This document shows, piece after piece, positions 1,147-12,724 of a DNA stretch of 15,090 nt (position 1 is the first letter of the stretch; each line of letters starts with the position of its first letter). The stretch spans positions 1 to 15,090 of IMG/VR virus record IMGVR_UViG_2778261639_000008, one strand, 5' to 3'. The DNA comes from a virus. Its lineage: Duplodnaviria > Heunggongvirae > Uroviricota > Caudoviricetes. Below the pieces are notes generated by a model. The model saw only the letters and a program-made list of their open reading frames with translations. It did not search any database and was not told the DNA's origin. The translations under genes and the position numbers were made by a program.

Positions 1147-2542
1147 AATAACGCCAGAGAACGACCTAGAGCGCCGTAATTACTGGCTTTCTGACAAAAA
1201 GAAAATGTCAGAGTGGCGGCGAACAATGCGAGAGCTGACCACTAAGCCGCACCGCGTAAAGTGTCTGCGTGGTGGTCGTGGTTCCAGTAAATCATGGCGC
1301 ATTGCTGAGGCGTTAATTGAGTTGACTGTGCGTTATGACCTTCGAATTCTCTGTTTGCGTAGGGTACAGAAATCTATAGACGCGTCATCGCATAAGCTAC
1401 TTAGCGACACGATACGCCGTCTTGGTTATGAGTCTGAATTCACGATAACGCAGAACAGCATAAAGGCTAAATCTGGCGCGGAATTCAGGTTTTTGGGCTT
1501 TCAGTCAAATCTCGACAGCATTAAATCCATTGAAGGTGTGGATATTTGCTGGGTGGAGGAAGCACACGCGATATCTGCTGAGGCATGGGAAACGCTTGCA
1601 CCAACACTACGCCGTGAAGGGGCTGAGTTGTGGATTACCTTTAACCCGGCTTTCGCATGGGATGAAACATACGTTCGTTTCGTGCTCAACGCGGAGGATG
1701 ACTGGTTTGTAGAGGAGGTGAACTGGTATCACAACCCGTACTTTAATTCGACTCTGGATAAAGAGCGACGCTACACCCTGAAATATTACCCGGATAAATA
1801 CGACAACATCTGGAATGGTGTTCCTGTCAGTGATTTACCGGGTGCTGTCGTCAATCGTGGTCATCTTGAAAGGCTGGTGGTGTCGCCTGATTCAAAACTG
1901 GCGAAAGCCTGTCGAACTGGCGTTAAAACAGTGGTGCTCGATGTTGCCGATGAAGGTGATGATGATTCGGTGTTGTCTTTCTTTGACGGGCGTTTTTTGT
2001 ACCGTATGGAGCGATTACAGGCACGTGACACTGTTCAGCTAGCGCAGCAGGCGTTAAAGCTGGCAGCAGAGGAAGGTTGTTCCGTACTGATTTATGACTC
2101 TGTAGGCGTTGGTTCAGGTGTTAAAGGCGAACTTAACAAATACGAAGATTCAGACATTGAATTTCGTAAGTTTGTGGCTCAGGGCGAAGTGTTGCGCAAA
2201 AAATCCCGCTATCGCGGGGGGAGAGCCAACGAAGATACTTTTCACAACCTACGTGCTCAAGCGTGGTGGGCGTATCGTGACGCGGTTAATGACTCTGTGC
2301 GGTGGATGGAAACGGGAATTATGCCGCCAGATGGCTTATTTGCTATTTCAGACCAGATACCACGCCGATATCTCGATCGCATCCTTTCTGATTCTACTGG
2401 CGTCATGTGGGAAACCACGCCAGAAGACAAGATAAAAATTGAAGCAAAACCAAAGGTTAAAAAACGGCTGGGTGTGTCCACGGACTATGCCGACGCCATA
2501 TTCCCCCATCTGGTACGCATGAAATCAGGAATTATAGAATGA
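1133..2542 (+). CDS. terL: Terminase large subunit (PBSX / phage_term_2-type ATPase-nuclease)
   Basis: Deviant Walker A box LRGGRGSSKSW near the N-terminus and a Walker B-like acidic motif (VDICWVEEAH), with a C-terminal acidic nuclease region (VLDVADEGDDDS); 469 aa. The first ATG is at 1133, overlapping the terS stop; the track start at 1124 is a TTG. Ends in an ATGA overlap with the portal gene. Confidence 0.9.
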   Translation: MTAIEITPENDLERRNYWLSDKKKMSEWRRTMRELTTKPHRVKCLRGGRGSSKSWRIAEALIELTVRYDLRILCLRRVQKSIDASSHKLLSDTIRRLGYESEFTITQNSIKAKSGAEFRFLGFQSNLDSIKSIEGVDICWVEEAHAISAEAWETLAPTLRREGAELWITFNPAFAWDETYVRFVLNAEDDWFVEEVNWYHNPYFNSTLDKERRYTLKYYPDKYDNIWNGVPVSDLPGAVVNRGHLERLVVSPDSKLAKACRTGVKTVVLDVADEGDDDSVLSFFDGRFLYRMERLQARDTVQLAQQALKLAAEEGCSVLIYDSVGVGSGVKGELNKYEDSDIEFRKFVAQGEVLRKKSRYRGGRANEDTFHNLRAQAWWAYRDAVNDSVRWMETGIMPPDGLFAISDQIPRRYLDRILSDSTGVMWETTPEDKIKIEAKPKVKKRLGVSTDYADAIFPHLVRMKSGIIE

Positions 2543-3891
2543 CGAACAAAACCAGCTTAATTCCCACTGAGGGAATTCTAACAAAAGAGGGCTTACAGCC
2601 TGCCAGCTATAACATTGACAGCTACGTAACCATGATGGAAAGCGTGTCACATGGTGTTAAAGGTGCTGCCGGGATGGGTTCGCCAACGGCAAATCGGATG
2701 AAGGCCAGAGCCGCAGAGGGAAAAATTCCACTGGTGGCGGCTCTGGCTGGCGAAACATCCGGGATAGGCTGGCGCATCATCAGCGAACCGGTTGCTGCAG
2801 CGATGCTAAACGGGTTCGATATCATCACCGATAAACCGGAGGATGATAAAAAAATAAAGCAACTGTTTGATGATATGCGCATCTGGCAGAGCGTCGAACG
2901 CGCCACTGTGCTTAAACGTCATCAGGGCTGGTCGGTGCTGGTCATGGGTGATGATTGGGTTAGAAGCCATGGCGCAAACTGGATTACACCGTCAAATGAT
3001 TGGTTTTCTGATTATAACGACCCGCTTTTCGGTCTGCCGGAAGGCTGGCGTATTCAGCTTAAAAGCCCGATTGGTGGCGAGGTTTTTATTGAGCAAGACG
3101 ATTCACTACTTTTTGGCGATCCAGAGTACCAGCCGATTTACGGTAGTGCAGGTGTCGAATTTGGCGAGCCGGTTCTCTGTAAACCTTATGCATCATTGCA
3201 GCGTCTTGGCCTGTCTCATGAGTTAATCATCAGCATTCTGTCCCTGTCCGTACAGGATATTTATAAAAAAGATGAACTTGCAGAGGATTTAAAGTCAGCG
3301 AAAGGTGAAGCTATGGTGGCGCGTCGTCTGGCTGGTATCGCTGCTACCAGGCATTTGAATGACATGGTGGCAATTGATAAAGATGAAGAAATTACCCGTT
3401 TACAGTCCAGTATGACGGGAACCGCAGACCTTGTTGATATGGCTATCAAGCTGGTGTGCGCCGAAACAGGTTTCCCGGTATCAATGCTGGCTGAACGGCG
3501 GTCAGGACTGTCTAACAGTGATACCAGCGCAGATGCACAATGGCAAAACCTTGTTTCTCACATCACCACCAATGACATTATCCCGGCACTTAAAAAGCTG
3601 ACGTTGCGCTATTTGGGCGTAAAAGCTGACTTTATTCCTAACAAATCTCAGGGGCAGATTGACCGAGAGGTAGACAGGGACAAGAAAGTAGCGGAAACCG
3701 CGCAGATTTATTACCAGATGAGAGCCATCACCAGCGAAGAAGCCAGGGCAACAGCGAAGGAAACAGCCGCCGTAACACTCCTGACTGAGGCAGCGCCAGC
3801 AACAGGCACTATTGATGACCAGAATGACAAGGATTTGAACCAGAACGATACCGAAACCAGCAATAGTGAGGCCAATAATGCCGAAAAGTGA
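2539..3891 (+). CDS. Portal protein
   Basis: 450-aa ORF directly after terL and directly before a Mu F-like gene (SPP1-like order terL, portal, gp7-like). The acidic, low-complexity C-terminal tail (DDQNDKDLNQNDTETSNSEANNAEK) is typical of portals. I think it is the DUF1073-type portal family but cannot verify this without a search. Confidence 0.75.
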   Translation: MTNKTSLIPTEGILTKEGLQPASYNIDSYVTMMESVSHGVKGAAGMGSPTANRMKARAAEGKIPLVAALAGETSGIGWRIISEPVAAAMLNGFDIITDKPEDDKKIKQLFDDMRIWQSVERATVLKRHQGWSVLVMGDDWVRSHGANWITPSNDWFSDYNDPLFGLPEGWRIQLKSPIGGEVFIEQDDSLLFGDPEYQPIYGSAGVEFGEPVLCKPYASLQRLGLSHELIISILSLSVQDIYKKDELAEDLKSAKGEAMVARRLAGIAATRHLNDMVAIDKDEEITRLQSSMTGTADLVDMAIKLVCAETGFPVSMLAERRSGLSNSDTSADAQWQNLVSHITTNDIIPALKKLTLRYLGVKADFIPNKSQGQIDREVDRDKKVAETAQIYYQMRAITSEEARATAKETAAVTLLTEAAPATGTIDDQNDKDLNQNDTETSNSEANNAEK

Positions 3892-7015: not shown

Positions 7016-7032
7016 CAGGGAACCTCCGAAAT

Positions 7033-8238: not shown

Positions 8239-8598
8239 ATGACGGTAAACGATTGGCTTGCCATTCTGCTACCGGGGTTATCACTTGATGAGGGCGCTAT
8301 TAGCGCCCTTTCTTCTCAATGTGAGCGGCTATACGACCTTCGAGCCGCAGCGGATTACGGTTATGACGTAGAGCGCCTCAAAGCGCTGTATGTTGCCGCT
8401 AATCTCGCCCCGATAGCTGTTGAGGGAATAAGCGCCAGTGTTCGCGGGGTGGCAAGCCGCCGTGAAGGGAAAGTTGCAATGACCTTTACTGAGTCAGCAC
8501 AAAAGGCAGGCTGGCAGGGTACTACGTGGGGTGAGGAATTCTCAGACGCTATAGGCACATTGTCTGGTGGTTGTATTCTCATCGGTCATGCCGATTAG
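8239..8598 (+). CDS. Putative head-tail connector/adaptor protein
   Basis: 119-aa ORF at the head-completion position, with GGGG 8 nt upstream of the ATG. Family membership not verified. Confidence 0.5.
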   Translation: MTVNDWLAILLPGLSLDEGAISALSSQCERLYDLRAAADYGYDVERLKALYVAANLAPIAVEGISASVRGVASRREGKVAMTFTESAQKAGWQGTTWGEEFSDAIGTLSGGCILIGHAD

Positions 8599-8719
8599 CA
8601 GAATATTATCCTGATAAATGCGATTGGCCAGCCTTGGCGCCCACGGTAAAAAAATGGTTAAAGCGCACTTTCGCAGATGAATATTCCAGATTTTTAAAAA
8701 TGAATTCGGAGTTTGATCT

Positions 8720-9193
8720 ATGCGTGGTGGTGCAACGTTAGATACAAAAGGTTTTGACCGGGTTTTACGCCAGCGAATCAAGGGATTGGCAGGCGTAAAA
8801 CTGACTGTTGGTATTCACCGGGGAAAAACCAATAACGGCGTTGATGTGGCGCTTTATGGGGCATGGAATAACTTTGGTACTAAAAACGCGATGGGCTGGG
8901 AATTAATACCCGAACGTCCGTTTATGAGATTTGCATCAGACCGCATAGCCGACTGGATGAGGTCAAGCGAGTACAGAGATATTTTACGTGACGTAGCGCT
9001 TGGAAGAATAACACCTCAGCAAGCTATAGCCAGAATCGGCGCTAAAGCCGTGTCGATTACCCGCAAGACTATAGCTGACTCCGCACTATACAAACCTAAC
9101 TCAGATATCACCATCGCCCGGAAAGGGAGCACTAAACCGCTGATACATAGCGGGGTACTCATTCAGACCGTAAATTACAGGGCTTTTTCATGA
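8720..9193 (+). CDS. Putative head closure / neck protein
   Basis: 157-aa ORF with GGAG at 8708-8711; first in-frame start after the stop at 8714. Its stop overlaps the next gene start (ATGA). Confidence 0.5.
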   Translation: MRGGATLDTKGFDRVLRQRIKGLAGVKLTVGIHRGKTNNGVDVALYGAWNNFGTKNAMGWELIPERPFMRFASDRIADWMRSSEYRDILRDVALGRITPQQAIARIGAKAVSITRKTIADSALYKPNSDITIARKGSTKPLIHSGVLIQTVNYRAFS

Positions 9194-12115: not shown

Positions 12116-12593
12116 TTCAATCAAACACGTAGAAATTAACGGGCAAAAATACTGCATCATCCGTATGAGCGCCTTTGATGCAGTTCACTTCAACTTGCGT
12201 GTAGCTGAAATTCTGGCGAAACATGGTATCAGCCAGGTAGAAAGCATCCTTTCTATGTCGTCGAAAATCTTCGGTATGCTCAACCGCGAAGACCACGACG
12301 AATTGCTGTTTACGCTGCTTTCAAAGTCACGCGCCCAACTGGTGGATAACGGCGAATTTCTGGATTCTTGGGATGTAGTTAACACCAATTTCACCGCAGC
12401 AAACATTGCTGATGTGTATCTGGTGGCGCTTGAGTGCCTTAAATTGTCCATTCTTCCGGTAACAGCAGGGTTAAAAAAAAATATTGGGCTGGACACAGCG
12501 GCAACAATGCAGGGAGCCATGCGGCAACTGTTCAACGCCTTGCTGAAAACCTTGACCGAACCATCCGCACAGAGCTCGTCATCTGGCGAGTGA
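12108..12593 (+). CDS. Tail assembly chaperone, short (G-like) form
   Basis: 161-aa ORF immediately upstream of the tape measure gene, overlapping the tube gene stop. Contains the A9 slippery run at 12473-12481. Confidence 0.65.
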   Translation: MDDSIKHVEINGQKYCIIRMSAFDAVHFNLRVAEILAKHGISQVESILSMSSKIFGMLNREDHDELLFTLLSKSRAQLVDNGEFLDSWDVVNTNFTAANIADVYLVALECLKLSILPVTAGLKKNIGLDTAATMQGAMRQLFNALLKTLTEPSAQSSSSGE

Positions 12594-12724
12594 TTGAAAG
12601 CGGCCTGATTAGCTACGATGCCGTAGCGTCAGGCCGCGCCTCCTTCGATTCCATTATGAGAGCCTCCGCCGTTATCCAGTTCGATAACGCGGTTCAACAC
12701 GCGCTTAGTAAGGTGAAAAAATGA
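12108..12724 (+). CDS. Tail assembly chaperone, predicted -1 frameshift (GT-like) extended form
   Basis: The -1 frame is open from 12443 to the TGA at 12722-12724 with no start codon near its 5' end, and it is entered exactly at the A AAA AAA heptamer within the A9 run (12473-12481). The extension reads ...YWAGHSGNNAGSHAATVQRLAENLDRTIRTELVIWRVIESGLISYDAVASGRASFDSIMRASAVIQFDNAVQHALSKVKK and ends overlapping the tape measure ATG at 12721. Confidence 0.55.

Follow-up and report, generated by a model that had tools for sequence, protein, structure and literature searches.

The question raised by this locus is why an operon of closely packed phage genes is interrupted by a non-coding gap of 121 nt, and whether the gap carries a function. 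The stretch of DNA that was analysed, called the window here, comprises 15,090 nt of a tailed-phage (Caudoviricetes) record. It holds the virion module of a myovirus-type prophage, with every gene on the + strand, and the gap is found at positions 8599..8719, between the genes of a DUF4054 protein and a Neck1-type protein.

Position of the gap in the virion operon

The module starts with the small terminase, large terminase, portal, a MuF-like protein, a DUF2213 protease/scaffold, an Ig-domain protein and the major capsid protein. The capsid gene is followed by an 84-aa open reading frame, the DUF4054 protein, the Neck1-type protein and a phrog_939 head protein, and the module ends with the tail terminator, DUF3383 sheath, tube, tail chaperone and tape measure gene. 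The DUF4054 gene (8239..8598, + strand) encodes a 119 aa virion structural protein of the head-completion or adaptor type (phrog_302) and closes with a TAG stop codon at 8596-8598. The Neck1 gene (8720..9193, + strand) encodes a 157 aa protein of the tail-completion type (phrog_222, 'tail completion or Neck1') and starts with the ATG at 8720; an earlier start of this open reading frame is blocked by an in-frame TGA at 8714-8716.

The 121-nt gap reported by the first-pass annotation is real, as it is bounded by this TAG and this ATG. It is poor in open reading frames and displays a GC content of 0.38 compared with 0.46–0.57 in the flanks. Both of the A-tracts that had been named are present, at approximately 8645-8657 and 8692-8703, as are the two tiny ATG-initiated open reading frames, one of 20 codons (8618..8680) and one of 13 codons (ATG 8700, in the frame of the 8571..8741 open reading frame).

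All other junctions of the operon had been described as overlapping or only a few nt apart. This is correct for most of them, but not for a 17-nt spacer at 7016-7032, which precedes the capsid gene, or for the stretch before the tape measure gene, where 127 nt separate the end of the chaperone gene (12593) from the tape measure start (12721). The latter interval is closed only if a 44-codon open reading frame at 12590..12724 is accepted, which spans it exactly and shares a 4-nt overlap with both the chaperone and the tape measure gene. Probably this open reading frame encodes the second (frameshift or extension) partner of the tail chaperone, or else it is a separate small gene.

The region upstream of the small terminase gene (269-600) shows three terminator-like hairpins, at 331-350, 488-513 and 534-547, and one promoter-like site at 386-413, also just before the first virion gene. 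The stacked hairpins together with the promoter-like site suggest late transcription by antitermination. In the prophage of E. coli CX12 the counterpart of this region has a Hok/Gef toxin gene. The CX12 homologue of window positions 2539-3891 carries the RefSeq name 'anti-CBASS protein Acb1 family protein', but the gene sits between the large terminase gene and the gene of the minor head (MuF-like) protein, where the portal gene is expected. The name therefore looks like an annotation transfer error.

The junction in related loci

Scanning genome, viral and metagenome collections with protein anchors left 57 loci that could be used; they come from Klebsiella, Raoultella, Leclercia, Buttiauxella and E. 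coli and from contigs of gut or environmental origin. A homologous element of 120–122 nt is kept in 43 of the 57. In 34 loci it lies between the DUF4054 and Neck1 genes as in the window, and in six an extra small gene is situated between the element and Neck1. Three loci show a 65-aa gene, a second unrelated hairpin and a 21-nt duplicate of the DUF4054 3′ end ahead of the element. An extra gene and the second hairpin are found without the element in nine loci, and in the remaining five (L016 and L036 among them) the DUF4054 and Neck1 genes share a 4-nt overlap.

The E. coli CX12 prophage, with 79% DNA identity to the window and an identical gene order, has a gap of exactly 121 nt. The closest Neck1 sequence from a cultured phage is 38% identical and belongs to Erwinia phage phiEt88, in which the DUF4054 and Neck1 genes overlap directly and there is no gap. 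A megablast search of the 1.7-kb region against phages gave no match, nor did a BLAST search of cultured phage genomes and plasmids with the element, and a pattern scan of viral contigs for the element returned the same prophage lineage and chance matches only. The element is thus a lineage-specific addition at a junction that is compact across the wider family. The DUF4054 protein ends at the identical residue in the relatives (IGHAD/IGHAS*), gapless ones included.

According to the first-pass annotation, a variable or absent gap in related genomes would speak against a function. Where the element is present this is not what is seen, since its length, sequence and pairing are kept. The gap is nevertheless absent from five of the 57 relatives and from phiEt88, and other relatives carry inserted genes at the junction. 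The element is therefore dispensable, and is not needed for virion production.

Alignment of 32 distinct element versions (25 in an earlier set) was performed with MAFFT on sequence only, and the versions align almost without gaps. In diverged relatives the element is 72–80% identical to that of the window, compared with 75–83% for the whole flanking genes and 45–62% for their third codon positions; its divergence is about half that of synonymous positions in the adjacent genes. The spacing between its conserved blocks is fixed, and the length is kept at 120–122 nt even where the Neck1 proteins are only 57–65% identical. Because the identity of the element exceeds that of the flanking third codon positions, it is taken to be under purifying selection and is not a random spacer.

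There is one copy in the 15-kb window, one per related locus and one in 50 kb of the CX12 prophage region. In E. coli the element is present in three of 5,426 genomes, at one place per genome. With a single copy in each of these settings, the element was rejected as a dispersed intergenic repeat of the REP/ERIC/MITE type.

Predicted RNA secondary structure

Both the MFE and the centroid fold of 8599-8690 yield a long irregular RNA hairpin, or rod, of roughly 86 nt (proposed at 8601..8686, + strand), which starts 3 nt past the DUF4054 stop codon. The predicted helices are P1, with a 5′ arm at 8601-8607 and a 3′ arm at 8680-8686; P2, with arms at 8611-8613 and 8674-8676; P3, in which 8616-8622 pairs with 8664-8667 and 8669-8671; and P4, with arms at 8624-8630 and 8655-8661. 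The apex (8631-8654) is variable and contains an A7 tract. Most of the 25–32 variants share the P1–P4 architecture when folded alone, despite differing central sequences, e.g. UGGCCAGC/GCUGGCCA in L028, a version with G-U in L030, CAAG..GGGG/CCCC..CUUG in L075 and UGCA/UGCA in L041.

Standard pairs occupy 86.6–87.5% of the cells of the alignment, compared with 30–51% in slid controls. The covariation score is 0.19–0.20 and there are 28 further pair types; slid controls, in which the 3′ partners were moved by 1–3 columns, reach a score of 0.084 at most and 16–20 further pair types. The observed pairing values were reached by none of 500 shuffles, a significance that is overstated as the 32 variants are related by descent, and the tested structure was itself derived from one of the aligned sequences. 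Pairs with double changes number 7–8 compared with 5–10 in the slid controls, i.e. they show no excess, and the covariation signal therefore rests on the cell counts, the pair types and the score. In P1 the variation is confined to one side. P2 and P3 display independent switches from G-C to A-U or C-G in separate lineages (L025, L041 and L005; L004, L032 and L075). The conserved 5′ arm UUGGCCAG has its 3′ partners placed differently in L025, L028 and L030, and G-U pairs are abundant in the hairpin.

In 31 of the 32 variants the sense strand folds more stably than the complementary strand, and with control for composition z averages −1.93 for the + strand and −0.50 for the − strand. This asymmetry speaks for a structure of the RNA and not for a DNA palindrome. 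Compensatory substitutions on the transcribed strand, the pairing pattern of a structured cis-regulatory mRNA element, are thus found here. Taken by itself, the window sequence is not significantly structured (z = −1.78, with 12 of 200 shuffles folding equally well). The rod is the MFE of the window gap when the coding flanks are masked as if covered by ribosomes. In unconstrained folds with 60–100 nt of coding flanks it is lost in the window and in many relatives, and the mean pair probability drops from 0.40 to about 0.2.

A segment of the DUF4054 coding region, AGGCTGGC (8508-8515), is perfectly complementary to GCCAGCCT (8627-8634), the most conserved block of the element, and captures this block in unconstrained long-range folds. 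The coding motif is also kept in L036, which has no element, and so the match is probably a coincidence with the G-W-Q codons. Repeats that link the gap to the rest of the window were found as chance-level pairs only.

The 3′ part of the element, downstream of the hairpin, is an A/U-rich single-stranded spacer of about 21 nt (8687..8707, + strand; alignment columns 97-116), which is the least conserved part. It is followed by the Shine-Dalgarno sequence GGAG (8708..8711, + strand), which has invariant columns and is located 8 nt before the start codon within GGAGTTTGATCyATG. The element is always found directly 5′ of a gene start, and GGAGTTTGATCyATG precedes Neck1, an Acb2-family gene or another small open reading frame alike.

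Another strong hairpin is present inside the Neck1 gene, at codons ~15–28 (8762-8801). Its arms, 8762-8779 and 8784-8801, form 16 of 18 pairs, with −24 kcal/mol. The position is kept in most of 34 distinct relatives with differing extent and sequence, and the hairpin is weak in a few lineages. The core, CCGCCAGCG...CGCUGGCGG, lies over the invariant residues RQR...LAG and gives −20 to −31 kcal/mol. This hairpin is a candidate for a second cis RNA element; alternatively, conserved residues and codon choice may have produced it as a by-product.

Possible functions of the element

The feature is real and conserved, and it is probably functional as RNA. As its function, the best explanation is that the gap would be a lineage-specific, constrained cis-acting element of the late (virion) mRNA, an intercistronic hairpin for processing, stability or insulation of translation, and we give this explanation an even chance. 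The hairpin would interrupt the tight translational coupling found elsewhere in the operon and so end the coupled block of head genes. It may be a processing target for an RNase directed to double strands or to A/U sites, or alternatively may protect the 3′ end of the upstream head-gene message. The next cistron, Neck1 or in relatives an inserted accessory gene, would then begin translation from its own leader. Folding in vivo, cleavage or stabilisation, and an effect on protein ratios are all steps that we infer. With regard to an RNase III or RNase E site, the geometry is compatible and no more: the hairpin offers about 24 stacked pairs or more, and the single strand on its 3′ side is A/U-rich. 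The first-pass annotation had proposed an RNA-processing site or a regulatory RNA element among its options; a conserved structure of the sense strand fits both, with cleavage and regulation as putative roles. Should this explanation hold, translation would not be uniformly coupled along the whole virion operon of this uncharacterised enterobacterial prophage group, and RNA structure at the head-to-neck boundary could set head versus neck/tail expression or message stability.

The lack of a competing annotation, be it an Rfam family, a promoter, a terminator or a conserved open reading frame, was counted in favour of the mRNA element. A covariance search of the whole window against Rfam at the gathering threshold gave no match, and at a permissive E of up to 10 the region 8500-8800 gave a single chance snoRNA match, outside the gap; the search for a known RNA family that the first-pass annotation had called for was therefore negative at both thresholds. 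No intrinsic terminator was found by a scan of the gap, where the base of the hairpin is A/U-rich and a T5 run begins 5 nt past the stem.

An internal promoter had also been put forward. The gap may be an internal promoter or a DNA activator site, with the conserved TTGGCCAG block and the A-rich or AAYATT blocks recognised by RNA polymerase or a late activator, so that a neck/tail (or accessory-gene) transcript starts here. In phages of the Mu and P2 types, activator-dependent late promoters are situated between head and tail genes. TTGGCC-N17-19-TAAAAA/AAAAAT is the best sigma-70-like match in 17 of the 32 variants, and one variant shows TTGGCC-N17-TAAAAT at 12 bits. In the AAYATT block, a possible −10 element, A88, A89 and T92 are invariant and T93 is nearly so, and the fixed spacing between conserved blocks was likewise counted for a promoter or activator site. 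However, a sigma-70 consensus scan found no site in 8599-8719, and the best score in the window by a hand-built PWM, 5.9 bits, is at the 72nd percentile of 130-nt background windows, mostly of coding DNA. The −10 candidates are missing the critical final T or the first T (the TAAAAA candidate is missing the final T), the GG and GC elements, judged by eye, are 1–2 nt too close for sigma-54, and no motif is common to the element and the region upstream of the terminase genes. A DNA site also leaves the compensatory pair changes, the abundance of G-U and the strong strand asymmetry unexplained. A promoter or activator site is thus considered unlikely.

Similarly doubtful, and given a low probability, is a translational gate at the Shine-Dalgarno sequence. 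Here AUUCC (8683-8687), the 3′ arm of the lowest helix, would pair either with the 5′ arm or with GGAGU (8708-8712), and the frequency of translation of the next gene would be set by ribosomes that terminate 3 nt ahead of the hairpin or by a trans factor. The AUUCC/GGAGU pairing is possible in 98% of cells and forms part of the MFE structure predicted for the whole window element; in other variants the partner of the Shine-Dalgarno sequence is CUUUCA instead. In addition, the Neck1 initiation region is the most structured of the 17 gene starts in the window, with P(unpaired) of 0.31 over −20..+15 and 0.24 over the Shine-Dalgarno sequence. But AUUCC and GGAGU are both almost invariant, hence there is little or no covariation, and weak U/C-rich partners are available to any GGAG in an A/U-rich leader. 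When the 5′ arm was blocked in silico, the accessibility of the Shine-Dalgarno sequence did not shift consistently across 25 variants (means of 0.20, 0.17 and 0.22). A ribosome-coupled switch of accessibility was rejected for this inconsistency across variants.

The gap could also be the non-functional scar of an accessory-cassette insertion or deletion at a recombination-prone junction, its apparent conservation reflecting shared ancestry. The junction is plainly subject to repeated gene gain and loss, and the element is dispensable, as the five relatives with overlapping genes and phiEt88 demonstrate. In the loci that carry it, the 21-nt duplication of the DUF4054 3′ end adjoins the element, and variants of the CX12 type, and these only, show a marginal 15-nt direct repeat, TTAACGGrrTTTkAT, at the element ends. 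This repeat is however absent from the window version, and elsewhere 5–7% of shuffles reach it. A scar is also at odds with a divergence about half as fast as at adjacent synonymous positions and with a length that stays within 2 nt across lineages whose Neck1 proteins are 57–65% identical; the compensatory substitutions and the strand-specific stability argue against it as well. We regard it as quite improbable.

The 20-codon open reading frame (8618..8680, + strand; MRLASLGAHGKKMVKAHFRR), which lies inside the hairpin, was judged non-coding, in agreement with the first reading of both small open reading frames of the gap as non-coding; its start is absent from 6 of 25 variants, the frame-3 sequence is uninterrupted in just 3 of 25, 3-periodicity is absent, and neither has a protein family match. 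That it is a leader peptide whose translation remodels the hairpin is very unlikely. Although 19 of 25 variants have a start codon there (17 ATG, 2 GTG) and most open an 18–25-codon frame with a mostly shared stop column, the ATG and stop are kept because they lie inside helices P3 and P2/P1. No Shine-Dalgarno sequence is found at a usable distance, six variants have ATA, ATT, GTC, TTC or AGT in place of the start codon, and in two the frame closes after 10 codons. Changes in the C-terminal half are non-conservative, and the variability of the columns is flat over the codon phases (0.231, 0.267, 0.231).

Three other coding explanations were rejected. Extension of the DUF4054 protein by frameshift would need a slippery site, which is absent, and the last residue of the protein is the same in all relatives. 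The 56-aa frame-3 open reading frame (8571..8741) stays open in just 3 of 25 variants. Nor does Neck1 lack an N-terminus: the phrog_222 profile exceeds the protein in length, but the relatives in which the genes overlap show the 157-aa form to be complete.

Comparison with known intercistronic elements

The polycistronic mRNAs of phage T7 contain RNase III processing hairpins between cistrons (R1.1 and others). The element resembles these in being an irregular hairpin of several tens of nt with internal loops, situated in a non-coding spacer with the ribosome-binding site of the next gene directly after it. Its ~24–28 stacked pairs would meet the length for double-strand recognition, and cleavage here is putative. 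Unlike the T7 sites, it shows no sequence similarity to them, is a single site per genome instead of one of a set, has an A/U-rich lower stem and is dispensable in close relatives.

In enterobacterial operons, intercistronic stem-loops and imperfect palindromes stabilise the upstream mRNA, e.g. REP in malE-malF, and ERIC/IRU sequences of about 127 bp. The element is likewise transcribed and intergenic, an imperfect palindrome of about 120 nt in Enterobacteriaceae DNA, and the message of the gene ahead of it may have to differ in stability from the next one. REP and ERIC sequences are dispersed and multi-copy, however, whereas the element is single-copy, has no ERIC core sequence and no Rfam match, and is limited to one prophage lineage.

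Hairpins that sequester the ribosome-binding site are found at late genes of phage T4 (e, soc, I-TevI), where switching requires a late promoter within the hairpin. The element shares the location just upstream of a gene start and a 3′ arm able to pair with the Shine-Dalgarno sequence. It differs in that no internal late promoter is supported and the occlusion of the Shine-Dalgarno sequence is weak and without covariation.

The PeSL (promoter-early stem-loop) cassettes of T4-type phages, in which a strong sigma-70 promoter is joined to an effective terminator and of which a genome has many copies, are also small conserved non-coding stem-loop cassettes at places where non-essential accessory genes swap between related phages (Arbiol et al. 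2010, PMC2839356). The junction duplications at the element add to this likeness, as they suggest recombination at conserved flanks. The element differs from PeSL in having no convincing promoter and no U-tract terminator and in being present as one copy only. Since it is single-copy, has neither promoter nor terminator and shares no sequence with these systems, it belongs to none of T7, REP/ERIC or PeSL, and is best filed as a new, lineage-specific structured intercistronic mRNA element.

Accessory genes at the junction

The genes inserted between DUF4054 and Neck1 in relatives include those of two distinct Acb2/Tad1-family proteins of 112 aa and 94 aa (Pfam PF24729, E-value about 1e-17 to 1e-18). 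These sponge-type genes occupy the slot in L025 (2659-2997), L030 (2659-2997), L031 (2658-2942), L033 and L076. Acb2 is described as a phage sponge for cyclic-nucleotide immune signals (PMC10312549). The other slot proteins, at least four in number and of 62 aa (phrog_1761), 65 aa (phrog_9518), 75 aa (phrog_6978) and 119 aa, are uncharacterised and are candidates for a counter-defence function. The junction is thus a slot for accessory, anti-defence genes in relatives, which is empty in the window. In relatives with an inserted Acb2-family gene, Neck1 starts 3 nt past the stop codon of that gene and has no Shine-Dalgarno sequence of its own.

It is conceivable, if rather improbable, that the hairpin and ribosome-binding site form a fixed 'expression platform' of a dedicated anti-defence slot in the virion operon. 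The platform would gate or time the translation of whichever gene is plugged in, an Acb2/Tad1-family sponge or one of the 62-, 65-, 75- and 119-aa proteins, and together with the second hairpin would serve as a recombination boundary for cassette exchange. If so, the element would be a practical flag for new anti-defence genes, as well as an unusual case of an RNA-structured cassette site within a late operon. The main value of the element is that it marks where to look for new counter-defence genes.

The second long hairpin (CCATTACAAAGCCCATCTGCGGGTGGGCTTGATAATGG) is unrelated to the element and is found in related loci, e.g. L022 (2940-3000), L028 (2816-2860) and L004 (2943-3000). It trails three different open reading frames, those of the 65-aa phrog_9518, the 94-aa Acb2-family and the 75-aa phrog_6978 proteins, and is positioned ~20 nt upstream of the Neck1 ribosome-binding site, without a U-tract. 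The duplicated segment consists of the final ~21 nt of the DUF4054 gene (GTTATCGGTCATGCC..TAA) and is situated between the inserted 65-aa gene cassette and the element in L028 (2860-2880), L032 and L083 (E. coli ECONIH4). It appears to be the footprint of the recombination that inserted the 65-aa cassette.
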